Origin: Candidatus Thorarchaeota archaeon
GTDB taxonomy: Archaea; Asgardarchaeota; Lokiarchaeia; Sigyniarchaeales; SOKP01
Direction of reading: 5' to 3'
Length of the DNA stretch: 64,000 bases
NCBI GenBank assembly: GCA_048882645.1
Contig: JBHLRJ010000001.1
Span: 22,945 to 86,944 of the forward strand
A model generated the notes under the pieces. It had not been told where the DNA came from and ran no database searches. It saw only the letters and a program-made list of their open reading frames with translations. The position numbers and the translations under genes were made by a program. Shown here piece by piece: positions 1 through 53,399 of this stretch. The stretch's first letter is position 1. Each line of letters opens with the position of its first letter.

Positions 1-72
1 TCTTTAATGATCATTTAAAAATTTACCAACAATGGCTTCCTCCCGGAATGGACATATTTCTCTAAAATCTGG

Positions 73-1056
73 TTATTTTAGGCTGTATAACCTACGAGCA
101 TTTTCCCAATATATCTTCTTTAAAACATCTTGTGGTAAATCCAATCCATTTATTTTAGTATTGTTATCGTTTTCTGGATCCGGAAAAGGTAGGGGTAAGT
201 CTCGAATTTTTGTTTCTAAGAGTGCTTGGAAGGTAAAATAACGAGTACGATAATAATCTGAAATTGGTTTATTTCGATCTTGCACAATGTCTGTGCCGAA
301 AAGAATTCTATCTGAGAATTTAATAAAAAACTCTCTTGCGTTTTTGGGATACCTTCCAAGCTCGCGTGCCATCCACCTCGCTGAAGAAGTATCTATATAG
401 TAGTTTGGATATAATTCAAACCACCTTGCCAAATTTTCTAAATGCTCAGGTTGACTCCCAAAATGAGCCTGTTGTACTTTTAAATTTGGGAAACTTGACA
501 GAATTTCCTCAAAATCTTCGATATGTTCTCTTTTAGTTCCATATCGACTAACTGGTTGATAAACCTTCTCATACCAAAGATCTGGATCACTAACGTGAAT
601 TAATAATATGAGCCCTAATTCTGCTATCTTAGCAAATATTGATTTAAAAAAGGGATCAGATAACCTGATTTTTGGTGGATCAATTTTAAGTTGTTCTTTA
701 ACAAAATCTCTCACTCTCGGTCCAAACCAAAATTTTACAACAGGAAATTCTTGTTGATAAATCTCATCAATTAAATCTAATATTAATTTGAGGTTTGGCT
801 TTGTTTTAAAAAGCTCCCTACTTCTGAAATACTTTGCTAATACAAACTTATTAGGGAATTTATTCTCTAATTCTTCATAACCATTTCCCCAAATAATTCC
901 AATTGATTTTTTGATATTAAATTCTTCTCTAAATTTAATTAAATTTTGAATACCCCCTATCCTCCCTAAATGAACATGGGCATCAAATTTCGGACCATGA
1001 TATTTCGATCTAACTATTGAATCATCATTATTGTATTCTGGAATATATTTTTGCAC
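73..1056 (-). CDS. amidohydrolase-family (TIM-barrel metal-dependent) hydrolase
   Basis: 327-aa ORF. N-terminal 'FDAHVHLG' metal-ligand block and C-terminal 'ILFGTDI' block are typical of amidohydrolase_2 proteins. Recognised by eye. Confidence 0.6.
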   Translation of the reverse strand: MQKYIPEYNNDDSIVRSKYHGPKFDAHVHLGRIGGIQNLIKFREEFNIKKSIGIIWGNGYEELENKFPNKFVLAKYFRSRELFKTKPNLKLILDLIDEIYQQEFPVVKFWFGPRVRDFVKEQLKIDPPKIRLSDPFFKSIFAKIAELGLILLIHVSDPDLWYEKVYQPVSRYGTKREHIEDFEEILSSFPNLKVQQAHFGSQPEHLENLARWFELYPNYYIDTSSARWMARELGRYPKNAREFFIKFSDRILFGTDIVQDRNKPISDYYRTRYFTFQALLETKIRDLPLPFPDPENDNNTKINGLDLPQDVLKKIYWENARRLYSLK

Positions 1057-2304: not shown

Positions 2305-2832
2305 TTGTTATTAGTTGAGAAAAGAATGAATGATACTGAAAAAACCTTCTCAGATGCAATTAATGAGCAATATGGTGCTGCAATCGGGATGTTAGAAAAA
2401 AACTTAGAAAGTTGCCCTGAAGACGAATGGGATGATAGAACTAATGGTCCCCCATTCTGGCATGTAGCTTTTCACGTCATGTGGTACCTGGATTGGTACC
2501 TTTCGGATTCAAAAGAAGCCCGTAAAAGTTTTAAATCGAAATTTGGTAAAGAACCATCTCAAAATTTAAATCAAGCACCAAAAATAACACTAACACGTAG
2601 CCAATTATTAGATTACTTATCAGATATTAAAGAAAAAGCAAAAAATCGGTTTAAAGAGTTAACTTCAGATGAAATGATACAGCCTTCTGTATTTGAATGG
2701 CACGGAAATAGCGTTTTAAGTTCACTACTATATAACCTTCGCCATTTAATGCTCCACATAGGAGCTCTTAATTTAAGACTTCACAGGAAAGGTGTAAAAT
2801 TGGATAACTGGATTAGTAATCAACAAATTTAG
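2305..2832 (+). CDS. DinB-family protein
   Basis: 175-aa ORF with spaced His-containing helices 'FWHVAFHVMWYLDWY' and 'LRHLMLHIGALN', typical of the DinB four-helix-bundle superfamily. Confidence 0.55.
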   Translation: MLLVEKRMNDTEKTFSDAINEQYGAAIGMLEKNLESCPEDEWDDRTNGPPFWHVAFHVMWYLDWYLSDSKEARKSFKSKFGKEPSQNLNQAPKITLTRSQLLDYLSDIKEKAKNRFKELTSDEMIQPSVFEWHGNSVLSSLLYNLRHLMLHIGALNLRLHRKGVKLDNWISNQQI

Positions 2833-2906
2833 TTTCCTCTTATCATATTGGAGAGGGAAAATTTTTTTCTAAAAATTTTTAAATTTAACATCCTATATTA
2901 AAAATT

Positions 2907-3368
2907 ATGCCAGAAAGTATCAAGTCATTAAAGTTTGTATATGATTATGCAAAAAGCCTTTTTGAAAAGCGAAAAGATAATCATTTTGAGGACTCCATGA
3001 GAAAATCCTTATTCGAAGAGGAAGAAACCGCTCTGAATGTATTTGTGCATGCGGTCACTCTACTAAATTGGGCAATGAAAAAAACTTCGAATCCCGATGC
3101 TGATAATAAGGAGATCGCTATAAAGTTAGATCCTGAATCCACCGCACCATTATATGAACAATTATTAGATTTATTTGACAATGCAATTAAAGCTTATGAA
3201 GAGGTAAGAATTAAATTTACTGAAGAAGATCTTCAAAAGAAATTTAAATCCCCTTTTGGGAGAGAGATGACTTACGAAGATTGGTTTGCATTCAATATAC
3301 ATCACACTATCGGTCATATTTATCAAGCGTTTAGATTACAGGCCATTTACCTACGACATAAAGTTTAG
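2907..3368 (+). CDS. DinB-like protein (weaker match)
   Basis: 153-aa ORF 74 nt downstream of the previous gene on the same strand. C-terminal 'FNIHHTIGHIYQAFRL' His-rich helix is DinB-like. Confidence 0.4.
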   Translation: MPESIKSLKFVYDYAKSLFEKRKDNHFEDSMRKSLFEEEETALNVFVHAVTLLNWAMKKTSNPDADNKEIAIKLDPESTAPLYEQLLDLFDNAIKAYEEVRIKFTEEDLQKKFKSPFGREMTYEDWFAFNIHHTIGHIYQAFRLQAIYLRHKV

Positions 3369-3469
3369 TTTAACGACTAATAGGAATAAAACTAAAAGGA
3401 TTTCAAAAAAAGAAAAAAAAGATAAAGTATTATTATTAGTATTATAAATCAAATCCTTCTAATACTAAA

Positions 3470-3691
3470 CTAGAAGTATTTTATAGCTAGTAAAATATCA
3501 TCCCTAGTTACCTTCTTTCGTTTTGCATGTTTGGTTAAGGTTAAAGCAGTTTTTGTGATTTTTTCAGCTGATTGACCCATCCAATCAACAAGTTCATCTA
3601 CAGCGTCTCGAGCTACGATTATTGCACCATTGTGTTTCATTAAACGCCTAATTGGAGACCAGGAAATATATTCGGACATTTTTAAATTCAT
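3470..3691 (-). CDS. archaeal histone (HMfA/B-type histone fold)
   Basis: 73-aa ORF. 'SPIRRLMKHNGAIIVARDAVDELVDWMGQSAEKITKTALTLTKHAKRKKVTRDDILLAIKYF' is collinear with HMf-type histones, including the 'RKxxT..D' loop. The true start is possibly Met5 at 3679. Confidence 0.8.
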   Translation of the reverse strand: MNLKMSEYISWSPIRRLMKHNGAIIVARDAVDELVDWMGQSAEKITKTALTLTKHAKRKKVTRDDILLAIKYF

Positions 3692-4206
3692 TCCTCCACT
3701 TATTTATTATTTTGGTTTAATAATTTTAATTTAAAATTTTTGATTAAATTAAACTTATTATATAAGCTAAGATCTTACACATATTTAAAGATTTTGATGT
3801 AAACTTAAGTTTATTGAGAAAAAAATAAAAAAAGTCTAACGACAAAATTCGGAATCGTGAAAGTGACCATTCTCGTGCAACTTATTTTATTTTTCTGGAA
3901 AAACGAAATTCATTAAATCTTAGGATTGAGACTATTAAAATCAGAAAATAGTTCTTCATATTAGCATTTAAAGAGTGATAATTTAGAATATTTTGAAATT
4001 AAATCAAATACTGAGAAGCTAAATTTAGAAATTTTAGAATTTACAAGAGTTAGTTATTTTCACAAAAAATTAACAAAGAGGTGAAAAAGAAGAAAATTAT
4101 AGATGATTGATGCTGATAAACCAAATTTTATTTATGGATTAGGAGATTAACTTCAAATAATAGAAATAAATCATCTCAGGTTGAAAATCTTCAAATATAG
4201 GTTTTT

Positions 4207-5193
4207 TTACCATAATATTTGTTCAAAACTACAGTTCTTACAGGCAATTTCCTCCCCTTTATTTGGAAAATAAGGGAGGATTGCACCACAATACTTGCAC
4301 TCCAAATCATAAATTTGTTCTGGAGATGAAACAATCTCTCTTATTAGAAGATGCTCTTTAAATTCATGAGTAAAAAGTGTTAAAAATGATATAAGAACAT
4401 GATGATTAGTTGATATAACAATAATCTCGATTTTATTTGATATTATTTGACCAATAACTAATACATCCTCTTTTGATTCAAGTTCAGAACCAAAATACCA
4501 AAGTATTTTTTTAGCAGGATCTTTCGCTATTAATTGGAGGTGGTTCCTAATAAAGACTTGTTCTAATAGATTGAAATATAATTCTGTATCAAATTCTTCT
4601 ACTTTCCCTATTCCAATGCTTTTAATAGCTCTTTTCATTCCTTGCTTTTGAGAAAATTCTTGGATATAAGTACTTGGAATTATTTTAGGAATTATTGTTA
4701 TTTCATCAAGCATTAATTCTATCGGCGTTGTATTAAGAGCTCTTACAAAATCTTTAGTGGTTACATAAGTAATTACCGTTTTTATCTCTCCTTTATTGCC
4801 TAAAGATGTTGGAGTAAAATGTAAATTAATTTGTCTTGAACTTTTTTCATTCAATTCGTCAAATTCAACATTAATTTTTATCATTTTCGCTTCTTCGATA
4901 GGTTCAGGGATATATATTGTCGGAGGATAACTTCTAGTTAGGGTCAATGATTTTGAATAATCAATTTTAATTTTCACTGCAGTAATAGGTGCTAAACTTT
5001 CATTAATTAATTGAAGCGAATACAAATAATGTCCACCATGTGGTTGGAAATCATATGCGAGTTTTATTTTATCTTCCTGGTCGATTGTTTCAAATGTGAA
5101 TTGATCTTGTTTTTTTTCTACTTTACTTTTAAAAATTACTAGATTTTGTGGTTGTGGGACCTCTAGTTCTTTATTTTGATTCTTCTTGGTCAT
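4207..5193 (-). CDS. uncharacterised protein, paralog A (predicted beta-sandwich + alpha/beta module + C-terminal Zn-ribbon)
   Basis: 328-aa ORF, collinear with the neighbouring 5398..6360 product. Shared blocks: 'SYPP', 'LHFTP/LHFSP', 'GEIxTxITYV', 'PIE', 'LWYFG/LWFFG'. C-terminal 'LECxxCGxILPYxPNKGExIxCxxCxFEQIxW' gives CxxC...CxxC. Confidence 0.75.
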   Translation of the reverse strand: MTKKNQNKELEVPQPQNLVIFKSKVEKKQDQFTFETIDQEDKIKLAYDFQPHGGHYLYSLQLINESLAPITAVKIKIDYSKSLTLTRSYPPTIYIPEPIEEAKMIKINVEFDELNEKSSRQINLHFTPTSLGNKGEIKTVITYVTTKDFVRALNTTPIELMLDEITIIPKIIPSTYIQEFSQKQGMKRAIKSIGIGKVEEFDTELYFNLLEQVFIRNHLQLIAKDPAKKILWYFGSELESKEDVLVIGQIISNKIEIIVISTNHHVLISFLTLFTHEFKEHLLIREIVSSPEQIYDLECKYCGAILPYFPNKGEEIACKNCSFEQILW

Positions 5194-5397
5194 AGTGAGG
5201 TTTGTAATGTATTTTTCTTGAATGTGAGTTGAATTCCCTATTTTAGATAAAATAACAATTTTATTTATGTTATTTAATATTAATTCTTTTCTTTATTAAA
5301 ATTTAATAATAAGAGAAATATTTAAGAAAATTAAAAAGATTTCAGATAAGTGTTAATCTCCCTTTTACTCTTTAGCCTATTTAATAAATAAGATTGT

Positions 5398-6360
5398 TTA
5401 CCAAAAGATTTGCTCAAAATAGCATTTATTACACTGAATTTTTTCTCCCTTATTTGGTAGATATGGGAGAATATTGCCACAATTCACACATTCTAAGTGA
5501 TAGAACTTATCAAGTTGATCTCTGAGTTTCTCAATAACCCCAAAGAAAAATGGGATAAAATAGATAGGATCTTTTGACAAATTAATTATTTCAATCATAT
5601 TTATGCGTATTTTAATAAGAATTAAAATATCATATCCAGAGAGCACTTCGTTACCAAAGAACCATAAATTTCCTTTATCTTTATCATTAGAAATTAATTG
5701 GAAATTACGAAACTGAGGCAATTTTTCTAAAACATCGAAAAATTTACTTAAATTCTTTTTCTTACTTTTTTCAAATCCAAGGCTTATCATATCTCTCTTA
5801 ATACCAGGATATTGTGTAAAATCTCTAATACTTGAAGTGGGGATCAGTTTGGGAGATATATTCACCATTTTAATTTGGATTTCTATAGGATTGGATTTAA
5901 TAACTTTCGGAACGCCATCATTGTTCACATAAGTTATAATTGTGTTAATTTCACCTGTTGCTGTAGGAGAATAAGGAGAAAAATGCAGGAATATTTGTTT
6001 AGAGTCATCTAATCTATTAAATTTAATAGTTAGTGTCTTGACTTTTTCTTCGTAATCCTCAGTGGAAGAAATAATATCTATCTCTGGAGGATAAGATTTG
6101 AAGTATTTTAAGAATCTTGGATATAATACTTTAATTTCAACATCAGAGATCGGTCTTGAGCCTTGATTATTTAAAAAGATTGAATATCTATAGCACACTC
6201 CATGAGGACTTAACTTATTTGCACAATTAATTTTACTCTCTTCATCAGCTTTCTCTACTGAGTATTTATCTGTTTCCTCTGTAGTGCTAGCTTCTGTAGA
6301 TTTCAATGCAACAAATTTCTGCATCCGGTTTTGATGCTCTTCTCCTTCCTTATCGGGCAT
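5398..6360 (-). CDS. uncharacterised protein, paralog B (same architecture as 4207..5193)
   Basis: 320-aa ORF in tandem with paralog A on the same strand, with the same conserved blocks and C-terminal Zn-ribbon 'CVNCGNILPYLPNKGEKIQCNKC'. Confidence 0.75.
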   Translation of the reverse strand: MPDKEGEEHQNRMQKFVALKSTEASTTEETDKYSVEKADEESKINCANKLSPHGVCYRYSIFLNNQGSRPISDVEIKVLYPRFLKYFKSYPPEIDIISSTEDYEEKVKTLTIKFNRLDDSKQIFLHFSPYSPTATGEINTIITYVNNDGVPKVIKSNPIEIQIKMVNISPKLIPTSSIRDFTQYPGIKRDMISLGFEKSKKKNLSKFFDVLEKLPQFRNFQLISNDKDKGNLWFFGNEVLSGYDILILIKIRINMIEIINLSKDPIYFIPFFFGVIEKLRDQLDKFYHLECVNCGNILPYLPNKGEKIQCNKCYFEQIFW

Positions 6361-6470
6361 ACTATCTTAGAATTATATAGTGGTTTTAATATTTAAATTA
6401 AGAGAATGGATTTTTTTAGATTAATAATAATTTAAATATTTTTTAACTTTAATATCTTAATTATTTTGTA

Positions 6471-7139
6471 ATGCTTAAAGAATTAGATACCTTATTTCAG
6501 AGTTCCACAATTAGACCAACATTTGAAAAAGTACATGTTATACTAGCATTATTCATATTTGATGAAAATCCAGAAGGAATTGGAAGATACCGATTAAAAA
6601 AGGAGTTATTGATTGGAGAGGGTACAGCAAAATCGTTAATCAATAAATTAAAGGCTGTGAAGTATATATCTGTTTTAGATCAAACAAGAAGAAAAGGGCA
6701 CATTCTTACAAGTACAGGATTAGAATACTTAAAGAAAATTATGAAGGTAATACCATTAATGGAAAAAGGAGATTCAACAATTTTAAAAGATATAATAATA
6801 GATTCTGAGAATACATCAAGCTATTTCTGTTTAGTGAAAACAGGCATTAAAAAAATTCGAGATGGTGTAAGTCAAAGAGATGCTGCTATTAAAGTTAATG
6901 GCTCTGGAGCAACGTGTATTGTTTACGATGGTAATAATTTAGTTTTCCCTACCAAATCTGATTCAGAAAGTCTTAATAATGATATAGTTGTTAGTGATAC
7001 TCTAAATGATTATTTTAAAGCTGTGTTTTTAAAAAAAAATATTAAGCTACAGGACACCGATGTAATCGTTATTGGATCTGGAATCAACCCTCAGTTAGCA
7101 CGGTTAGCAACACTTAGTGCGGCTTTAACGTTAATTTGA
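6471..7139 (+). CDS. winged-helix (wHTH) domain protein with uncharacterised C-terminal domain
   Basis: 222-aa ORF. The N-terminal 'GIGRYRLKKELLIGEGTAKSLINKLKAVKYISV...GHILTSTGLEYLKKI' pattern is wHTH-like. It may correspond to the archaeal DUF4443-type family (from memory, unverified). Confidence 0.5.
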   Translation: MLKELDTLFQSSTIRPTFEKVHVILALFIFDENPEGIGRYRLKKELLIGEGTAKSLINKLKAVKYISVLDQTRRKGHILTSTGLEYLKKIMKVIPLMEKGDSTILKDIIIDSENTSSYFCLVKTGIKKIRDGVSQRDAAIKVNGSGATCIVYDGNNLVFPTKSDSESLNNDIVVSDTLNDYFKAVFLKKNIKLQDTDVIVIGSGINPQLARLATLSAALTLI

Positions 7140-7159
7140 ATATTTTGTGAAATAATATT

Positions 7160-7657
7160 ATGAAACTTGAAAAAGATATAATTCTGTTTCTAACTGAAAA
7201 AATTGTGACAGAATTAAAAGAATGTAAAAGAGATTCAGATCCTATTGAAGCTTGCGGACTCATTTTTGGAGATATTAAAAATGTTAAAGTTTCTAAGGAA
7301 GATTATCAATATCATTATATCGGTAAACAGTTTTATTGTCTTAAATCAAACATTGAATCATATGGCTCATTTGCTTTAATTCAAGATACTGATAAATATT
7401 ATGAAATTCATCAAGATGCTATTTATAATAAGAAGTTACGAATGATAAGCATATTTCACTCACATCCGGTTCCTCCTTACCCGAGTTCAATTGATATAAA
7501 AAATATGAAGTATCTTGATGAGGATATAGGAGAAACCAAAAATCCATTTAAAAACCAAATTTGGACGATAATGGATATGAGCACAGAAGAGATCAATGGT
7601 TTTATATATTACAATAAAGAATTATTACAAATTGTTATACAAATTAAGAATAAGTAG
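7160..7657 (+). CDS. JAB/MPN (JAMM) domain metalloprotease-like protein
   Basis: 165-aa ORF 20 nt after the previous gene. It has the catalytic Glu context 'IEACGLIFGD' and 'FHSHPVPPYPSSIDI' (HxH...SxxD, JAMM-like, spacer one residue shorter than the consensus I recall). Confidence 0.7.
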   Translation: MKLEKDIILFLTEKIVTELKECKRDSDPIEACGLIFGDIKNVKVSKEDYQYHYIGKQFYCLKSNIESYGSFALIQDTDKYYEIHQDAIYNKKLRMISIFHSHPVPPYPSSIDIKNMKYLDEDIGETKNPFKNQIWTIMDMSTEEINGFIYYNKELLQIVIQIKNK

Positions 7658-7674
7658 TGTAATAATTAATTATA

Positions 7675-8346
7675 TTATTCCACTTGCTTAAAACCTTCAG
7701 CATCAATAGTGCAAATTTGTAAATTAAATCCTGATCCCGCATCCCTTTCTCGTGAACTTGAGATTGCCGTTTTTAACAGATCTATACCAGCTGATTTGGT
7801 TAAATTAGGCTTCCAATCAGCTTCAAGTACACCAAGTGTAAACGGGCTTCCACTCCCAAAACTTATGAAATTTTCTTCTTCATAGAGAGTTCCTAAAAGA
7901 TCAATACCGTAAAGTTTCCCAGATTTCTCTTTTTGGGAATACCCACCAACAATCATCATAGACATGAAAAAACTTCTTCCACTAAAAAGTATATTACGGG
8001 TAATGCTGGCCACATATTTAGGATCTGGAACAATTCCATCTTCAACTTCCTTCAATCGTGATAATGCCCGCAATTGATTAACAACATACTGGCAATCAGC
8101 AACCCCCCCTGCAATAGTTGCTGCTGTGAAATCATTTATTTCAAATAATTTTTGAGCTTGTTTTGATGCTACAGTAAAACCAGCAGTCGCTTGGGACTCT
8201 GTTCCCATGACAACGCCATCTTTAATAATAATACCAACCGTAGTAGTACCTGATTGAATTGCATTTTGAAGTGCGTTTTCGTCGAAAATACGTGAATTCC
8301 TATTATTATTTATCATTTTAATTCCTTTTACTTGAAAATTAATCAA
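7675..8346 (-). CDS. psmB: proteasome subunit beta
   Basis: 223-aa ORF. A propeptide is followed by 'TTTVGIIIKDGVVMGTESQATAG' (N-terminal Thr nucleophile context) and the Ntn-hydrolase blocks 'IAGGVADCQ' and 'GSGS'. Confidence 0.9.
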   Translation of the reverse strand: MINFQVKGIKMINNNRNSRIFDENALQNAIQSGTTTVGIIIKDGVVMGTESQATAGFTVASKQAQKLFEINDFTAATIAGGVADCQYVVNQLRALSRLKEVEDGIVPDPKYVASITRNILFSGRSFFMSMMIVGGYSQKEKSGKLYGIDLLGTLYEEENFISFGSGSPFTLGVLEADWKPNLTKSAGIDLLKTAISSSRERDAGSGFNLQICTIDAEGFKQVE

Positions 8347-8493
8347 TTATTAATAATCGATATATTATGTTAAATAAATATTATTTCTATTTTTATTTTT
8401 CCTTAATAGATCATAATTTCGTTCAGATTTTAAAAAAATTTTAAAGATATCCTTCTTTATCTCTACCATTAACTAAAATATGGTCAATATTTC

Positions 8494-8877
8494 ATGGCAA
8501 GGTCTCAAGCGAGGTCAAAGAGAAAGTATACGGGTAAAAAATATAAGTATTTTAGAAAAAAAAGGAAAAGAGAACTTGAACGACCGACAATTGATGCTTC
8601 AATGGGAGAAGAAAAAAAGAAGAAGCAGCGTGTGTTAGGAGGAAACGTAAAAATTCGACTTTATTCAACAAATTATATTAATGTAACAGACCCTAATACG
8701 AATAAAACCTCTAAAGTCAGGATTCTAAGATTTGAACGTAATGATGCTTCCCAAGATTTAAATAGAAGACATATATTGACAAAAGGAGCAATTGTTGAGA
8801 CTGAACTTGGAAATGTAAAAATAACTAGCCGCCCAGGTCAACATGGTAATCTTAATGGAATACTGATTACAAGGTAA
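8494..8877 (+). CDS. rps8e: 30S ribosomal protein S8e
   Basis: 127-aa basic ORF with 'SKRKYTGKKYKYFRKKRKRELERP' and C-terminal 'ITSRPGQHGNLNGILI', characteristic of S8e. Confidence 0.85.
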   Translation: MARSQARSKRKYTGKKYKYFRKKRKRELERPTIDASMGEEKKKKQRVLGGNVKIRLYSTNYINVTDPNTNKTSKVRILRFERNDASQDLNRRHILTKGAIVETELGNVKITSRPGQHGNLNGILITR

Positions 8878-8904
8878 AATTATACTTTTTCTCCATAAAT
8901 CGGA

Positions 8905-9630
8905 TTACAACATAACTTTTGATTTATAATACGTAAGTCCATCTAACATTTGATCAGGGTGTATCTTCTTCAATTCCTCAATAGGATGCCATCTTAGATT
9001 ACCTTCCCACTCTTCATGTTGAGCATGTATAAGTTCATTGGGATTATAATTAAATGATTCACTAATCACAGTAGAAATTAGAAATGTTACAGAAACACCA
9101 TTCCATCCACCTAGTATTGCTATAAGCATGTTTTCCGATTTAAAAGGTAAATTAACTTCTTCATACAATTCGCGTAAGAGGGAAACTTCTGGTTTTTGTG
9201 CTAAATCATTACTTTCCAATAATCCTCCAGGGCATGTTGTGACTCCTGGAAAGTAGGTTTTAGTCAGAGATCGCTCACCAACCAAAATATGTTTTCTATT
9301 AGGAGAAAAAACAAGATATTGTGTACCACACACCCCAATCCCCTTATTCACAGGAATTTTTTTCTTAACCATATATATAACAGTAGAAAATTTAATGAGA
9401 CTAACATTCAATTGAAGATAGTCATTTTTGTATTGAAAACTATCCAAAAATAATAAATTACCATCATAATCATTAGGGTTTTCTCTTAAATGATTATTCC
9501 AGTTTTTTCGAATATGAGGATAATTATCAGGTGTTAAAGAAAACTCTTGGAATGAAATTTTATTCCATTTGATGTAATTTAATAACAATTCACCATCCCA
9601 TTTTACTTGTAAGCTATGTCGTTCTTCCAT
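8905..9630 (-). CDS. NUDIX hydrolase with N-terminal extension
   Basis: 241-aa ORF. Nudix box 'GGLLESNDLAQKPEVSLLRELYEEVNL' fits the Gx5Ex7REUxEExGU pattern. Confidence 0.75.
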   Translation of the reverse strand: MEERHSLQVKWDGELLLNYIKWNKISFQEFSLTPDNYPHIRKNWNNHLRENPNDYDGNLLFLDSFQYKNDYLQLNVSLIKFSTVIYMVKKKIPVNKGIGVCGTQYLVFSPNRKHILVGERSLTKTYFPGVTTCPGGLLESNDLAQKPEVSLLRELYEEVNLPFKSENMLIAILGGWNGVSVTFLISTVISESFNYNPNELIHAQHEEWEGNLRWHPIEELKKIHPDQMLDGLTYYKSKVML

Positions 9631-9652
9631 GATTTAATAGATTTGATAATAT

Positions 9653-10024
9653 CTATTCCTGAATTTTTATATTCTTGACATTCGCTTTTTTTCCTTCAAT
9701 TATTTCTGTATTATTGCTTCCACAATGAGAACACTGAAATAATTGTAATCCTGTTAATTGTGCATCCCGATTTAATGTAACTACCGATTCTTTATTACAA
9801 TCACGACAAGTAATTTTTCCAGGAGTAATTTTAATAATCAATTTCGCATTCTCTGCGATTGAACCCTTTGTAGCCATCTCAAAAGAACGTTGGAGAAGTT
9901 CAGGAACAATAAGAGTGAGTTCTCCGATTTCAAGATGTACTTCAGTGATTTGCTTAGCATTGTATTTTATTGCTGTAGCTTCAGCTACTTTAAATATATT
10001 ATAAGCGAAAGAAAATTCATGCAT
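9653..10024 (-). CDS. hypA: hydrogenase nickel-incorporation/maturation protein HypA
   Basis: 123-aa ORF. The N-terminal 'MHEFS' Ni-binding motif, 'EVHLEIGELT' and the Zn site 'CRDC...CSHCGS' are the classic HypA layout. Confidence 0.8.
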   Translation of the reverse strand: MHEFSFAYNIFKVAEATAIKYNAKQITEVHLEIGELTLIVPELLQRSFEMATKGSIAENAKLIIKITPGKITCRDCNKESVVTLNRDAQLTGLQLFQCSHCGSNNTEIIEGKKANVKNIKIQE

Positions 10025-10035
10025 GATATTGAAAC

Positions 10036-10332
10036 TTAGCTTTTTGATTGTAATTTTCTAATTTCTTTAGCTACTTCTACTAATACTTTTGATTTTTTTT
10101 TTCCTTTTGTATCAATTATAACTCTTCCAGCGTCATCCCACCAACTTCTAGAATATTTATAATGGTGCTCAATTTCAGCATTATAACCCAGATTTTTAGC
10201 TGCTTTCACGATAACATTTAGATTAATTTTATCAACTGCATATTTTTTAGGAAGCCGTCGACCTTTACTTCGGCTCCGTTTTGCATCGAAATATTGTGGC
10301 CAAAATATTAAAAACGGCTTTCTTGATCTCAT
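10036..10332 (-). CDS. srp19: signal recognition particle protein SRP19
   Basis: 98-aa ORF. 'IFWPQYFDAKRSRSKGRRLPKKYAV' plus 'NLGYNAE' match the SRP19 pattern. Confidence 0.8.
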   Translation of the reverse strand: MRSRKPFLIFWPQYFDAKRSRSKGRRLPKKYAVDKINLNVIVKAAKNLGYNAEIEHHYKYSRSWWDDAGRVIIDTKGKKKSKVLVEVAKEIRKLQSKS

Positions 10333-48268: not shown

Positions 48269-48793
48269 TTAAAGCTCCCCAGCATCTTCTAAACATGCTT
48301 TCGCAATGAGTTCAAACGCTTTTTCTACATTTTCTCCGGTTTTTGCTGAGGTCTCCATATATTCACAGTTTAGTCTTTTAGCCGAATCTTCAGCTTCTTC
48401 TCGATCAACTTCTCGTTCTAAATCTACTTTATTTCCAAGGAGAATCATAGGAATAGCTTTTTTTACAGTTTTTTTAATTGAACTTATCCATCCAGGAATC
48501 TTTAATAGTGTTTGACTAGATGATAAATCAAATACGCCAAGAGCACCATTACTTCCCTTAAAATAGATTGTACGGAGTTTATGAAATTGAGGTTGTCCTC
48601 CTATATCCCAAAGTAAAAGACGTACATTCTTCCCACCAATGTCTACATCTTTGATAAGGAAATTACTGCCAATAGTTTTTTTTAAATCATCACTAAAATA
48701 ATCTTTAATGTAGCGTAGTAAAAGACTTGTTTTTCCTACACCTCCAGGTCCAAAAAGAGTTATTTTGAATTTATATTGCCCTTTCCCTGACAT
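48269..48793 (-). CDS. Ras/Rab-like small GTPase
   Basis: 174-aa ORF with all five G-boxes: G1 'GPGGVGKTS', G2 'KKTIG', G3 'WDIGGQ', G4 'GNKVD', G5 'ETSAK'. No C-terminal CAAX/CC prenylation motif. Confidence 0.9.
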   Translation of the reverse strand: MSGKGQYKFKITLFGPGGVGKTSLLLRYIKDYFSDDLKKTIGSNFLIKDVDIGGKNVRLLLWDIGGQPQFHKLRTIYFKGSNGALGVFDLSSSQTLLKIPGWISSIKKTVKKAIPMILLGNKVDLEREVDREEAEDSAKRLNCEYMETSAKTGENVEKAFELIAKACLEDAGEL

Positions 48794-49061: not shown

Positions 49062-50366
49062 TTATTTCGTTTTTTTTCCCTTCTTCCCAAGTTGACTCAT
49101 TAGCCACTCGGGACTCCCAACTCCATCAAAATACTTTGACCAAATATACATCAGAAATCCTAAAAGGGCAGCATAACCACAGAACATGATAGGGTAAAAC
49201 ATAATTGAAAAAGAACCAAGATAAAGAGGGAGGAATAAATATTGAATTAGAAACAATGAAAGACTAGTTTTACCATAAAAATTCACCATTTTTATGACAT
49301 CAGTATTCCTTTTTTTAATATCAATATAATAAAAAGAAACTCCAATTATAAGTAAAGCAGCTCCAAGGTTGTATAACATATTCGAAGCTGTACCTCTTAC
49401 CATGAAATCGAACATCCCTGGAAACACAGTTCTAAGCTGGACGGGCAATCCTTGTTGTTGATTTGCAATTCTTAGTAAATCAATATGCAGATATTCTGAT
49501 TTCACCACATAATTTGATAGAAAAGGTATGTAAATATAATTATCATCTGGTGCCACATTTATTAACCTTAGACCTAGAGCTAAACCAATTATAACCAAGA
49601 CCGCTCCCCATCTCATAAAAGTTTTAAAAAGGTTTTTATATGCTTCAGCCGTTCCTGAAATCATTGCTTCATAGAGTAATTCACCAAAAATCGTAGATAG
49701 AAAACATGTAGATAAAAATGGAAGAATAGGAACTTGTGGAAGTGGTGATGTTATTATAAAATGTAAGATCCAAATTCCTACATTATCATCCTTAAAAACA
49801 TAGAGTAGTTCTCTAATAAACGGTGAGATAAATATTATAAAAATACCTAAAACTGCACGTGTAAATTTACTGAATTTCAGTGAATAGTAAGATAAAATCT
49901 GGGAAAATCCTATAAACATGAGCACATTCCATCCCCAAAGATTCAAGGGAAAGGGGTATGCTACACCGGAGGTTTGAAGTGATAATGGATTAAATAATAT
50001 TCCAATTATAATTATAACAAAACCTCTCATAAATACCCGATTTCGAATAGATTTATCAGAAACTGTATCTTTCTTTCTTTTAATACTAAAAACGACACTA
50101 AGAGCTGAGAGGAAAACAAATAGAGTCGGACCTAAAATATCTAAAAATGCGAATACCAACCCATATATATACCTCCAATCGCTATCAAACCAAGCAAAAG
50201 CAGCATGAGCTAAAATAATAAATATCATGGCAAGACCTTTAACGAAATCGATAGAGGCAATTCTTTTTTTTGAATCTCTTATCCCCTTGCCAGAGACATT
50301 TTCTTCGAAATAATTGTTCAAGTACTGTGTTTCTGAACTTTGGATATCATTTTTGGTATTTGACAT
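49062..50366 (-). CDS. multi-pass membrane protein, DUF1624/HGSNAT-like putative transmembrane acyltransferase (paralog 1)
   Basis: 434-aa ORF. 'RIASIDFVKGLAMIFIILAHA' resembles the HGSNAT/DUF1624 N-terminal motif. It is collinear with 51990..53399, including the C-terminal 'GVGSPEWLM'. Confidence 0.65.
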   Translation of the reverse strand: MSNTKNDIQSSETQYLNNYFEENVSGKGIRDSKKRIASIDFVKGLAMIFIILAHAAFAWFDSDWRYIYGLVFAFLDILGPTLFVFLSALSVVFSIKRKKDTVSDKSIRNRVFMRGFVIIIIGILFNPLSLQTSGVAYPFPLNLWGWNVLMFIGFSQILSYYSLKFSKFTRAVLGIFIIFISPFIRELLYVFKDDNVGIWILHFIITSPLPQVPILPFLSTCFLSTIFGELLYEAMISGTAEAYKNLFKTFMRWGAVLVIIGLALGLRLINVAPDDNYIYIPFLSNYVVKSEYLHIDLLRIANQQQGLPVQLRTVFPGMFDFMVRGTASNMLYNLGAALLIIGVSFYYIDIKKRNTDVIKMVNFYGKTSLSLFLIQYLFLPLYLGSFSIMFYPIMFCGYAALLGFLMYIWSKYFDGVGSPEWLMSQLGKKGKKTK

Positions 50367-50627
50367 CTTTGAACATCTCCTAGTTTATAGTTTTCAATAT
50401 TGAAATTAAAAAAGAAAAATCTAATCTCCTAATTAAATATTTATATATTTTATTGTAAAATCTATGTCAGTAGAAATTTTTTCTTAAAGCTCAAAACATT
50501 CGATTTAGGGATCTAATATCAATAAGTAGGGAAGCTAATTCTACGTTTTGAATACTATCCATAAAATCAACTAAAAGGATTGAGATTAATTTAATTTTTA
50601 TATGATTTAAAACTCATGAGACTCACA

Positions 50628-51905
50628 TTATCTTTGTCTATAAAAAGTTATTAGAGTATAATAAAGTAAGATTATTAATATAAGTCCACCGATATTAAAA
50701 GGGACAATTTGATATGTGAGATAAAAGATCCCCCAAAAAGCCACGAGTAATATAGCGAACAAATAATGGAGATATTTAAAAAATGCATACAACCTAAAAT
50801 TCTTATTTAATAAAAGAAAAAAGATCAAGAAGGGAGCCAATACAACAATATGATGGGGCCAAGAATCGAAATATACCAAGAGTGTAATAGTAATTGCTGA
50901 TAAATATCCATAAATTAACTTATTTGTATTATCTGTTGAAGAAATAAACAGTAAATATAAGGGGAGAAAGGATATAAGAATAATAATACTAAAGACCAAG
51001 ATATTATTGACATCTAAATTAACCAAGTCAAATACGATTAATATAACTCTCGTAAGACTGAAGGAGGGATTAATTTCTAAATCTCCACCAACTTGATATG
51101 TATATTTACCGGCAAGGTTTACTTCAATAAAACCATTTAACATTTCAGGATATACTATGAAAAAGATTCCTGAAAACCCGATTAATATAATAGGACCACA
51201 TAATCTAATTACTGACTGTTTGAAGTGAAATGTTAACTTTTTAGATGCTCTATTGTAACTTATCAAAAGGATAAATGGTAATATAAGTATTAAAGTAGGT
51301 TTAATTAGTATTCCTAGTCCTAATAAACACCCTCCAAGAAAATTGTTTCGATTACCTCCGTTTAAAAAGTAAAAAAGCGAAGCGAGAACGAAAAAGCAAA
51401 CAAGAATGTTGATCTGGCCTAAAAAATAATTCATAAATTGTGGGAGCATTATTAAAAATAGAGCATTTTGATGAAGCACAGATTTATTTTCTATCTTGTA
51501 GAATATGTCTTTAAAATTATTTAAGCTATAGTCAATATTTACATTTGAGCTAATCTTTTTATAGACTTGAATGATTTTAAACATTAAATAAATATTTAGA
51601 AAATTTAGGAAAAAATTGAAGATTTGAAATACAAAATAACCTAATTCTACTCCTAATACTGAAAAGGGTGTAAAGAAATAAGCAGCCAGAGGAAAATATC
51701 TAAAGGGAAATAAATAAAGGGAAGCATCATATAAATTTGGTAAATCTGTTATAACGATATTACCTGCATTATAAAAAGTTAAGAAGTCATTATTATCAGC
51801 ACTCATTAAAAAACTATCTAAAAAATAAAAGAAGATAAACGTAAGAACTAGGTAAAATCCATTAACGAAAAATGCTATTAGGAAAAATTTCTGAGTGTTA
51901 TTCAT
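50628..51905 (-). CDS. multi-pass membrane protein, GT-C-type glycosyltransferase-like (DUF2029/GT87-like)
   Basis: 425-aa ORF with more than 10 TM segments. The first loop 'DFLTFYNAGN...LYD...FRYFPL' resembles the DUF2029 mannosyltransferase-like family. Tentative. Confidence 0.5.
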   Translation of the reverse strand: MNNTQKFFLIAFFVNGFYLVLTFIFFYFLDSFLMSADNNDFLTFYNAGNIVITDLPNLYDASLYLFPFRYFPLAAYFFTPFSVLGVELGYFVFQIFNFFLNFLNIYLMFKIIQVYKKISSNVNIDYSLNNFKDIFYKIENKSVLHQNALFLIMLPQFMNYFLGQINILVCFFVLASLFYFLNGGNRNNFLGGCLLGLGILIKPTLILILPFILLISYNRASKKLTFHFKQSVIRLCGPIILIGFSGIFFIVYPEMLNGFIEVNLAGKYTYQVGGDLEINPSFSLTRVILIVFDLVNLDVNNILVFSIIILISFLPLYLLFISSTDNTNKLIYGYLSAITITLLVYFDSWPHHIVVLAPFLIFFLLLNKNFRLYAFFKYLHYLFAILLVAFWGIFYLTYQIVPFNIGGLILIILLYYTLITFYRQR

Positions 51906-51989
51906 AAATAATTCTCAATTTGCTCCTTTTATGTGATTAGATATAAAATAATTATTTAATATTAAAAAATATTGAGATGTACAAGAGGA

Positions 51990-53399
51990 TTAGGTATTAT
52001 CCTCGTTTTTTGACAGTTTTTTCATAAATTCTTCCATTTTTTTCACTCTTTCCCTTTTAATCTTATTGTACACCTTTTTAGAAGTTTTCTTAACCGCTTC
52101 TCCTGATTTTTGACCAACTCTACCAATTTGTATCATAAGCCATTCTGGTGAGCCAACACCTTTAGCATATTCCATCCAAATATACATAAAAAGCCCCATG
52201 AAGCCAACATAAGAAAGACCGACTACTAGAAATAATGGAATGTTAAATTGATCAACAAATAAGGGGATAAATAAAAAATGAATTAAGAATAAACTTAATG
52301 AAACTTTACCATAGTATATCAACATTCTAACTACATTAGTTGATTTATTCTTTATGTCAATAAAATAGAAGAATATCGAGATAATAAATAGAGCAGCACC
52401 TTGATTATAAAACATATTAGCACTTGTTCCTCGAATTAAAAAAGTAGGCATTCCAGGGATAACAAACATACTTTGATCATTTGCAAGTGTTAATAACCTT
52501 ATATGGGGGTATTCAGAGGATATTATTGCACCACCATCTTCTATAGGGGTTTGGAGTGCCCACCCTGGTTGCCAGTTAGTAATATTTAGCCCCACAGGAA
52601 AAATAAAGAATATTCCTATTAAAATAAATAATAATCCCCATATGAAAAATATTCGAAACAAACCTACGTAAGCATCATCGGTTCCTTTATTCATTGCCTC
52701 AAAAATATATTCCCCAAATATAGTTGAGATAAAACTTATCGAAACCCATGGCAAAAGAGTTAAATGAGGAGTTGGAGAAGTTATAATGTAATGGAGAATA
52801 ATAAATAGAACATTACCTTGTTCTGTTCCAAGATAAAGGAGATCTCTTAAAACGGGTGAAAAAAGGATAATTAATAAACCGATTATAATACGTTGAGTTT
52901 TACTTAATTTCAAGATATAAAAAGCGAATATTTGAGAAAACCCAATAAAAGTAATTATATTCCAGCCCCAGATCGCAATCTTAAGCCTGCCTCCTTCAAT
53001 AATCACTATATTAGTTATCATTCCGATTACGATCATTACAATTCCCCGAGTAAAAATTCGATTCCTAATAATTTTTTGGGGAAGAATCCCTTCTTTTCTT
53101 TTAATGCTGAAAATTACACTCAAAGCTGAAAGGAAAACAAACAATGAGGGACCAAGTATATCTAATAGAGTAAAAAGAATCCCATATAAATATCTAGATT
53201 CGCCATCTAGCCAACCACTAGCAGTATGAGCTAATATAATAAAAACGATCGCAAATCCCTTCACAAAATCAATTGATTTGATACGTCTGGGAGAAGCATA
53301 ATCTTTAATATCTTCAAGAGGAATTTCTTGTTTCAAGTAATTAAAGAGAGGTGGTGATTCTGTTTCTGTGACTGAATCAATCCGGGACATTTTACTCAC
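51990..53399 (-). CDS. multi-pass membrane protein, DUF1624/HGSNAT-like putative acyltransferase (paralog 2)
   Basis: 469-aa ORF. 'RRIKSIDFVKGFAIVFIILAHT', a shared 'LDILGPxLFVFLSALSV(V/I)FSIKRK' block and 'GVGSPEWLM'. Confidence 0.65.
   Translation of the reverse strand: MSKMSRIDSVTETESPPLFNYLKQEIPLEDIKDYASPRRIKSIDFVKGFAIVFIILAHTASGWLDGESRYLYGILFTLLDILGPSLFVFLSALSVIFSIKRKEGILPQKIIRNRIFTRGIVMIVIGMITNIVIIEGGRLKIAIWGWNIITFIGFSQIFAFYILKLSKTQRIIIGLLIILFSPVLRDLLYLGTEQGNVLFIILHYIITSPTPHLTLLPWVSISFISTIFGEYIFEAMNKGTDDAYVGLFRIFFIWGLLFILIGIFFIFPVGLNITNWQPGWALQTPIEDGGAIISSEYPHIRLLTLANDQSMFVIPGMPTFLIRGTSANMFYNQGAALFIISIFFYFIDIKNKSTNVVRMLIYYGKVSLSLFLIHFLFIPLFVDQFNIPLFLVVGLSYVGFMGLFMYIWMEYAKGVGSPEWLMIQIGRVGQKSGEAVKKTSKKVYNKIKRERVKKMEEFMKKLSKNEDNT

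Follow-up and report, generated by a model that had tools for sequence, protein, structure and literature searches.

The appendages of the eukaryotic heterotetrameric coat adaptors (AP1-5, COPI, and TSET) and of the BBSome are interaction hubs. Here, we describe a pair of adjacent genes, A and B, whose predicted products resemble such appendages, in a 64,000-nucleotide stretch of DNA (the window) from Candidatus Thorarchaeota archaeon (GenBank assembly GCA_048882645.1, contig JBHLRJ010000001.1, positions 22,945 to 86,944 of the forward strand). Related proteins have been reported from archaea. Standalone Alpha_adaptinC2 (PF02883) proteins have been listed among the Asgard eukaryotic signature proteins (ESPs), with a sparse distribution (Eme et al. 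2023, Nature 618:992; Supplementary Information 4.3.1). Archaeal appendage regions, composed of an Ig-like domain and a TBP/helix-grip domain, have also been described, for example arCOG15284 in the Meth_adaptin ESCRT loci (Makarova et al. 2024, mBio 15:e00335-24). In that work, the TBP-like/helix-grip class was assigned to the distal appendage subdomain, a zinc ribbon was reported in WP_013898571.1, and another appendage was found to be linked to a GOLD domain through a transmembrane segment; the archaeal appendages were proposed to be interaction hubs, functionally analogous to ESCRT-0. The appendage assignment of related euryarchaeal proteins was obtained by independent authors with an HHpred probability of 98%. 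Moreover, a preprint by Liu et al. (2020) noted Asgard proteins in which C-terminal domains of adaptin/COPI are fused to Vps28/Vps23 or to UFL1, and ubiquitin-dependent membrane remodeling was predicted for such fusions. A structure-based survey of Asgard ESPs from 2026 does not discuss appendages.

A tandem pair of paralogous genes

Both genes lie on the minus strand of the window, which has a G+C content of about 30%:

4207..5193, minus strand: gene A, an open reading frame of 328 amino acids, putatively the ancestral-type copy of the appendage-like plus zinc-ribbon family
5398..6360, minus strand: gene B, an open reading frame of 320 amino acids, putatively a derived, fast-evolving tandem duplicate, proximal to a DUF4443 gene

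A preliminary description of this stretch had noted the tandem paralogy of these two same-strand genes, and their coordinates proved exact. In a BLASTP alignment of 318 residues, A and B were 37% identical, with 57% positives (E=1e-68). This similarity is far above chance, and on the strength of it the two are full-length paralogs. The motifs that had been singled out as common to both, SYPP, LHF[TS]P, GEIxTxITYV, [TN]PIE, PK[IL]IP[ST], G[MI]KR, and LW[YF]FG, were recovered in A and B, as was the C-terminal LECxxCGxILPYxPNKGExIxCxxCxFEQIxW. In addition, B kept all 28 of the 28 invariant columns of a 35-sequence family alignment, including four cysteines. A search of the 64-kb window for a third copy of the module found none. 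The reading frame of A stays open, with no stop, for 33 codons 5' of the ATG at 5193 (4210..5292, minus strand); the alignment of orthologs supports this ATG as the likely start codon.

Predicted domain architecture of A and B

An AlphaFold2 model of A, built on the 35-sequence family alignment, had a mean predicted local distance difference test score (pLDDT) of 83.4 and a predicted template-modeling score (pTM) of 0.77, with a clear sandwich, platform, and ribbon. The order proposed in the preliminary description, an N-terminal Ig-like beta-sandwich, then an alpha/beta domain, and then a four-cysteine ribbon, was seen in this model. The following regions were delimited:

5080..5193, minus strand: A residues 1 to 38, disordered N-terminal tail with the short conserved motif [QH]xLV[IF]FK (pLDDT of about 31 over residues 1 to 37)
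4705..5079, minus strand: A residues 39 to 163, predicted beta-sandwich of the GAE/E-set type (the appendage "ear" sandwich), from the AlphaFold2 model and a sub-threshold PF02883 match
4339..4704, minus strand: A residues 164 to 285, conserved PKIIPS linker and predicted alpha/beta platform (TBP-like/helix-grip), from AlphaFold2 and Foldseek
4210..4314, minus strand: A residues 294 to 328, putative C-terminal C4 zinc ribbon (C299, C302, C318, and C321, all invariant), ending in EQxxW
5869..6243, minus strand: B residues 40 to 164, predicted beta-sandwich, from the alignment mapped onto the AlphaFold2 boundaries of A
5512..5868, minus strand: B residues ~165 to 283, linker and predicted platform, from the alignment with A
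5401..5505, minus strand: B residues 286 to 320, putative C4 zinc ribbon (C291, C294, C310, and C313), from the alignment

Within the disordered tail of A, residues L18, V19, and F21 were each at least 90% conserved. The all-beta sandwich of the model comprised residues 39 to 161, with strands spanning residues 43 to 161 at a pLDDT of about 90. Residues 174 to 284 formed an alpha-beta-alpha-beta4-alpha domain, and the same alpha/beta domain was obtained when residues 165 to 290 were modeled separately (pLDDT 84.9). B lacks nine residues in the connector between the platform and the zinc ribbon and otherwise aligns with A over its full length. At the C terminus, the cysteines are spaced CKYC-x15-CKNC in A and CVNC-x15-CNKC in B; both have two CxxC knuckles with the spacing of a C4 zinc ribbon, in which the knuckles lie 15 to 20 residues apart on short beta-hairpins. 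The ribbon of A was modeled with short strands at a pLDDT of about 90, and its database matches were weak and fell on zinc-ribbon, eS27, and TFIIB-type ribbons. We consider this domain a putative C4 zinc ribbon with predicted metal binding. The net charge was near neutral or slightly acidic in every subdomain, none of which had a net basic charge, and this fits protein binding rather than the binding of nucleic acids or acidic lipids.

Similarity to coat and BBSome appendages

No curated Pfam or NCBIfam family scored above threshold for A or B, and sequence searches of NCBIfam and the PDB with A, B, and the family profile returned only weak similarity to zinc ribbons and eS27. Below threshold, PF02883 (Alpha_adaptinC2, the appendage/GAE sandwich) matched the correct region in 30 of the 35 family members, with a best E value of 2.9e-5, and PF14728 (PTHB1_GAE, the GAE domain of BBS9) matched in 7 of the 35. 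In distant paralogs that are 19 to 32% identical to A, the beginning of the module likewise gave the PF02883 signal. When the full model of A was compared with the PDB using Foldseek, the twelve best matches were all two-subdomain appendages (E=3.6e-10 to 4e-7), led by the COPI leaf structure 9qpq_H (3.6e-10) and beta2-adaptin 1e42 (1.6e-8) and including gamma-COP (1r4x and 1pzd), alpha-adaptin (2vj0, 1w80, and 1b9k), and the BBSome subunit BBS7 (6vbv_7). These alignments ran over 250 to 270 columns and therefore covered both the sandwich and the platform, in order. Used alone, the platform aligned with that of beta2-adaptin 1e42 over 95 columns with a query template-modeling score (TMq) of 0.51 and a root mean square deviation (rmsd) of 4.0 Å, and with gamma-COP 1pzd at a TMq of 0.43. 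On the predicted structure, A has the sandwich followed directly by an alpha/beta platform that characterizes the two-subdomain appendage fold. Overall, according to the model, A and B look like appendages of the adaptin/COPI/BBSome type, with a GAE-like sandwich and a TBP-like platform, to which a C4 zinc ribbon has been added.

Several observations weigh against this assignment. Every PF02883 match stayed below the gathering score (17.3 bits for A, against 27.6), no HMMER match to the solved appendages was obtained, and the Pfam families of appendage platforms (PF02296, PF09066, PF08752, and PF14806) were absent from A and B at E<=10 and from the 35 members at E<=0.1. The full-length superpositions had rmsd values of 13 to 15 Å and template-modeling scores of 0.27 to 0.38, both probably due to a different orientation of the sandwich and the platform in the model. 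The platform alone had no Foldseek match at E<=1e-3; its best matches belonged to the TBP-like/helix-grip class (the KA1 domains of METTL16 and MARK, BamC-N, Bet v1/MLP, and Flpp3, together with the beta2-adaptin and gamma-COP platforms), and folds of the KA1, BamC, and Bet v1 types scored equal to the adaptin platforms. The sandwich alone is a generic E-set domain, which in protein P0214 scores above threshold as DUF11, and cohesin and CARDB also appear among the matches; hence, the evidence specific for an appendage is the ordered pair of sandwich and platform. Furthermore, the N-terminal alpha-solenoid trunk, or the beta-propeller found in its place in the BBSome, is absent, A and B carrying only the tail of 38 residues that is disordered in the model of A, and Vps4, Snf7, and Vps28 are absent from the Pfam-annotated flanks (8 to 10 kb on each side) of loci L001 and L003 to L005.

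Family membership and distribution

At E<=1e-3, A had 245 database relatives, all of them "hypothetical" proteins of Asgard metagenome-assembled genomes (MAGs) and nearly all 324 to 330 amino acids long. A scan of the GTDB species representatives gave 60 loci, all Asgard (Promethearchaeota/Promethearchaeia), of which 59 module-bearing loci were used for the comparison of gene order; the family is conserved beyond this genome. Three proteins of the ESP table of Eme et al., Lokiarchaeales_BC2_SHMV01000096.1_8, Bin_204, and Bin_229, matched the family hidden Markov model (HMM) with E values of 1.9e-114, 4.9e-116, and 1.6e-111, from HMM position 1 or 5 to position 329. In BLASTP comparisons, they were 42 to 45% identical to A and 32 to 37% identical to B. 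By these alignments, A and B belong to the family listed by Eme et al. A precomputed PF02883 annotation was present on 2 of the 120 relatives listed, and the apparent sparseness of the family is probably a detection effect, because the Pfam scores are sub-threshold. The preliminary description had called the family undescribed and could not assign it. This view no longer holds, given the PF02883 matches, the appendages at the top of the Foldseek search, and the prior listing; the fold class has likewise been described, as the archaeal Ig plus TBP appendage region of Makarova et al.

Among side observations on the family, the locus L065 (positions 7..117), from a MAG labeled Odinarchaeota, is a contig end that holds only the zinc-ribbon end of the module (65% identity over residues 292 to 328), followed by a histone gene. 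It may mean that a MAG with this label carries the locus, but the submitter labels of this series look unreliable.

Conserved gene order and duplication history

On the side of B, the gene pair is bordered by two genes in the opposite orientation:

6471..7139, plus strand: DUF4443/PH0730-like winged helix-turn-helix (wHTH) gene, context neighbor, from Pfam and PDB 2p8t
7160..7657, plus strand: Prok-JAB metalloprotease gene, context neighbor, from Pfam

Neighboring genes in the 59 loci were located by tblastn with the window's own neighbor proteins, and the order was read wherever a flank was available. A near-invariant order was found: SRP19, HypA, S8e, proteasome beta, Prok-JAB, DUF4443 (wHTH), the divergent module gene, and histone. 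The adjacency to the JAB gene is conserved wherever the flank could be read. This eight-gene housekeeping order, as found by tblastn, contains no coat or ESCRT genes, ESCRT genes not having been searched for in these 59 loci. A is 50 to 69% identical to the single-copy orthologs of these loci, and module identity falls to 41% across loci with the conserved gene order.

The module gene is single in 55 of the 59 loci and tandem, as in the window, in the other 4 (L008, L009, L012, and L014). B was 39 to 44% identical to the proximal copies of L005/L008, L009, L012, and L014, and A was 66 to 68% identical to the distal copies. In a neighbor-joining tree, B and the four DUF4443-proximal copies formed one long-branched clade, and the distal copies shared a subclade with A, alongside some single-copy genomes. 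The simplest reading of this tree, which is crude, would be a single duplication, after which the proximal copy diverged faster and was lost again in some lineages. A similarity search with B returned B alone, which reflects the sensitivity limit of the word index and has no biological meaning.

Regarding the neighbors, the closest solved structure to the DUF4443 protein is PH0730 (2p8t), which is uncharacterized; a literature search for DUF4443 found no papers, and among the matches listed its homologs were close Loki-type orthologs only. The Prok-JAB protein (7160..7657, plus strand) carries HSHPVPPYPSSID at residues 100 to 112, a HxHx6Sx2D motif with all ligand residues present; the canonical JAMM motif, HxHx7Sx2D, is one residue longer. 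The two genes open a block of mixed orientation (6471..10332) that continues with proteasome beta, S8e, a NUDIX gene, HypA, and SRP19, and its order is kept in essentially all 59 loci. In L005, the closest tandem-bearing relative, positions 2893..5498 hold a proteasome beta gene of 213 amino acids, a gene of 265 amino acids with no Pfam match, and a proteasome fragment of 73 amino acids, an arrangement that suggests an insertion or partial duplication. The window contains a second tandem pair of paralogs, two genes of the DinB_2 superfamily (2305..2832 and 2907..3368, plus strand), and the same pair follows the histone gene, in conserved synteny, in L006, L007, L010, and L012. Elsewhere, at 49062..53399 on the minus strand, a gene for a GT87 glycosyltransferase lies between two paralogous genes for membrane acyltransferases of the HGSNAT_cat type; this may be a cluster for surface-glycan modification.

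Upstream element and putative promoters

Next, 56 intergenic regions were aligned. A region of about 130 bp located 5' of the single-copy genes is conserved and holds an AT-rich element, ATATAAATCAAnTTGTCnTATTATTATTTATC...GAAATTCAA, which ends approximately 37 to 45 nucleotides before the ATG of the module gene in dozens of species (L006 to L064). Two regions of the window were delimited in this comparison:

5229..5270, minus strand: upstream element of gene A, ACATAAATAAAATTGTTATTTTATCTAAAATAGGGAATTCAA, a degenerate but recognizable local version, as far from the ATG as its counterparts in single-copy loci, from the intergenic alignment
6361..6470, no strand assigned: intergenic stretch separating B from the divergently oriented DUF4443 gene, from the intergenic comparison

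In the tandem loci (L008, L009, L012, L014, and the window), the element precedes the distal copy, within the spacer. The region upstream of B is different and has its own TTTAAAT at 6391..6397, 37 nucleotides before the ATG, so that B very probably has its own promoter. A keeps the ancestral upstream element and would thus be the ancestral gene in its original promoter context, with B as the inserted duplicate. The conserved element is probably a promoter/5' untranslated region or a regulator-binding site, and it is possibly bound by the divergently encoded wHTH protein DUF4443.

The module in distant proteins

A search of 1.84 billion representative proteins with the family profile gave 131 matches. 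Outside the orthologs, the whole sandwich-platform-ribbon unit forms the C-terminal part of proteins of 380 to 1,270 amino acids. In a class of about 415 amino acids, it is joined to weak PCI-like winged helices, and in P0221 it is fused to DDRGK and E3_UFM1_ligase winged helices that score above the Pfam thresholds. Further partners include TPR arrays, NHL and other beta-propellers, and NosD beta-helices with PKD, fn3, CBM, LanC-like, and ConA-like domains. Adaptin_N was found in none of the fusions examined, including the matches of 900 to 1,270 amino acids, which carry NosD, PKD, NHL, fn3, CBM, LanC-like, and transmembrane segments instead.

Hydropathy analysis revealed a strong transmembrane helix 10 to 40 residues before the module in many of the proteins with propeller or other such domains, for example P0200, P0199, P0233, P0239, and P0227, together with an N-terminal signal or anchor and extracellular-type domains, and some other module-bearing proteins were multipass. 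In some distant paralogs, the propellers (NHL and others) are set apart from the module by transmembrane helices. The module is a recurrent juxtamembrane tail, and this tail would be cytoplasmic because of its Cys4 ribbon. The four cysteines were 96 to 100% conserved in 51 distant modules, above any residue of the sandwich or platform, and CxxC...CxxC was kept in 81 of the 103 matches that reach the end of the platform, indicating that the ribbon is an integral part of the module.

The Asgard family profile also reaches a euryarchaeal protein, from Methanomethylovorans, with a module-transmembrane-TPR organization, WP_321416955.1 (E of about 1e-5). On its contig (L067, 1..9938), the neighboring genes encode a PP2C phosphatase, a Ser/Thr kinase with TPRs, and two proteins with FGE-sulfatase domains; the kinase and phosphatase neighbors echo an association reported by Makarova et al. 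for archaeal ESCRT loci. The neighborhoods of two distant homologs, L066 and L067, contain no ESCRT or coat genes.

Proposed function

We propose that this family consists of soluble proteins of about 329 amino acids, of Lokiarchaeia-type Asgard archaea (Promethearchaeia), that act as appendage-like adaptors. For this explanation as a whole, that is, the family, its architecture, its history, and a role as hub or adaptor, we estimate a probability of roughly 0.6. The functional part, a soluble protein-protein interaction hub, is drawn by analogy and is tentative, at a little short of even odds. The sandwich and platform would capture partner proteins, probably through short linear motifs, as eukaryotic appendages do, and the zinc ribbon would offer a second, highly constrained surface for binding or oligomerization. 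The hub role is suggested by the appendages of AP2, COPI, and the BBSome, which are hubs, by the near-neutral charge of the subdomains, by fusion partners that are protein-interaction or membrane-receptor domains, and by the ribbon, which is under the strongest constraint, as expected of a docking or oligomerization element. Most likely, the free-standing protein would be a soluble adaptor that works on the cytoplasmic side of the membrane or takes part in sorting that involves a ubiquitin-like modifier, because in the paralogs the module directly follows a transmembrane helix or is joined to winged helices of the PCI/UFL1 type or to TPRs. B may differ from A in partner specificity or form a heteromer with it. 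The preliminary description had speculated on an adaptor in a trafficking or ubiquitin-type system connected with a small GTPase; the adaptor part is reasonable, and the GTPase part was not supported, as discussed below.

A more far-reaching version of this proposal, which we consider very unlikely, is that A and B form a heterodimer, like the paralogous coat pairs (alpha/beta2, beta/gamma-COP, and BBS2/BBS7), within a split primordial cargo-adaptor at the archaeal membrane. Its other partners would be separately encoded Asgard Adaptin_N solenoids, longin-type mu/sigma-like proteins, and Arf/Ras-like GTPases. The zinc ribbon would then replace the covalent hinge as a docking device, and the transmembrane proteins with the module as a cytoplasmic tail would be built-in cargo receptors.

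Alternative explanations

The similarity to appendages could also be convergent. A prokaryotic E-set sandwich of the CARDB/DUF11 kind, a helix-grip/KA1/TBP-like ligand domain, and a zinc ribbon may have been combined with no relationship to the eukaryotic appendages, and the ligand of such a protein would be a nucleic acid, a lipid, or a small molecule; it could, for instance, be an RNA- or DNA-associated factor encoded beside histone and ribosomal-protein genes. The best matches of the platform, none at E<=1e-3, are in line with this, METTL16 KA1 being a domain that binds U6 snRNA, as are the DUF11, cohesin, and CARDB matches of the sandwich, the weak resemblance of the ribbon to eS27 and TFIIB-type ribbons, the histone and S8e genes nearby, and a platform with no sequence-level link to the eukaryotic platforms. 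However, the combined sandwich and platform matched appendages with E values of 1e-10 to 1e-7, which is 3 to 5 orders better than the best sandwich-only matches (e.g., YcnI, 2.4e-5), the module serves as the juxtamembrane tail of receptor-like proteins and is fused to TPR and PCI domains, and the related euryarchaeal proteins have been independently assigned as appendages. Binding of nucleic acids or acidic lipids, suggested by the KA1/TBP-like fold matches, is made less plausible by the charge of the subdomains, all of which are close to neutral or slightly acidic. We regard convergence as quite unlikely. The preliminary description had also found the alpha/beta domain reminiscent of roadblock/LC7-type regulatory modules, and on that reading it would act on a small GTPase. 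A superficial alpha/beta pattern and a Ras-family GTPase elsewhere in the window speak for it, but the roadblock topology, as in MglB, LAMTOR, and robl, is alpha-beta2-alpha-beta3, and that of A is alpha-beta-alpha-beta4-alpha, matching the TBP-like, helix-grip, and KA1 folds. The sole roadblock structure in the platform search, Ragulator 6b9x_B, came at rank 31 (TMq 0.24, probability 0.28), and A, B, and the 35 members gave no Pfam signal for roadblock or longin domains. The GTPase gene itself (48269..48793, minus strand) is a genuine Ras-family gene (PF00071, E=1e-47), but 42 kb separate it from A and B, and its surroundings are unrelated: it is flanked by HAD hydrolase, threonyl-tRNA synthetase (ThrRS), and translin genes, with no positional link to A and B. 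Consequently, the roadblock reading is effectively refuted.

The conserved neighborhood raises the alternative that the protein works with Prok-JAB, the DUF4443 wHTH protein, and proteasome beta in proteostasis or ubiquitin-like coupling, an explanation that overlaps with the appendage-like adaptor. For example, the zinc ribbon could bind a ubiquitin-like modifier and the appendage could present substrates for deconjugation or degradation. Consistent with this, the order from SRP19 to histone persists at module identities down to 41%, the shared divergent intergenic region is conserved, the JAB motif is intact, and distant paralogs fuse the module to DDRGK and E3_UFM1_ligase-type winged helices, which belong to the UFM1 pathway; the membrane remodeling predicted by Liu et al. 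for related fusions points in the same direction. Nevertheless, the module gene is divergent from the DUF4443-JAB pair and hence not in one operon with it, and the block also holds unrelated housekeeping genes (SRP19, S8e, HypA, and histone), so that the synteny may reflect inheritance within one class. A Rosetta-stone comparison was negative, the N-terminal extensions of 72 paralogs having no similarity to DUF4443 or JAB, and the distant standalone and fused homologs sit in unrelated neighborhoods. We consider this coupling rather unlikely.

According to the model, the lokiarchaeial "Alpha_adaptinC2" protein is a complete sandwich plus platform appendage with an obligatory zinc ribbon. Its gene occupies a single conserved position in 59 species or more and is thus not sparsely spread, and its module recurs in receptor-like membrane proteins, where it would form the cytoplasmic tail. 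The lineage-specific duplication provides a natural A/B pair for tests of hetero-oligomerization and specificity. The identity of the family is unsurprising to a specialist; being small, soluble, and conserved, the protein lends itself to structural and interaction work in cultured Lokiarchaeia and is a well-defined, tractable system for asking whether Asgard appendage-like proteins truly act as adaptors.

Comparison with known systems

The literature found describes neither the full architecture of this family nor its fixed locus, and no account was found of the tandem duplication or of the module as a juxtamembrane tail. The proteins listed by Eme et al. share with A and B all the motifs and the C-terminal CxxC...CxxC..EQxxW; that paper annotates the Pfam sandwich only, and the platform, the zinc ribbon, the synteny, and the tandem duplication are absent from it. 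As in the multidomain ESPs of Liu et al. (2020/2021), which are fusions with Vps28/Vps23, UFL1, or longin domains, the module is fused to other domains in P0221 and the PCI-like proteins; in contrast, A and B stand alone and carry neither a Vps28-C nor a longin or winged-helix domain. The proteins of Makarova et al. are likewise two-subdomain appendages, sometimes with a zinc ribbon, a transmembrane linker, or TPR or PCI/HTH partners, but they are defined by their Vps4/ESCRT-III neighborhood, whereas A, B, and their orthologs, judged by gene order and by the annotated flanks of L001 and L003 to L005, lie outside ESCRT loci. Compared with the eukaryotic appendages (AP2 alpha/beta2, COPI beta/gamma, and BBS2/7/9; 1b9k, 1e42, 1pzd, 9qpq, and 6vbv), to which A is 9 to 12% identical, A and B lack an alpha-solenoid trunk or hinge, have no match to the platform Pfams, and differ in the modeled orientation of the two subdomains, and they carry a zinc ribbon and an N-terminal tail; what they would share with them is a sandwich followed directly by a platform.

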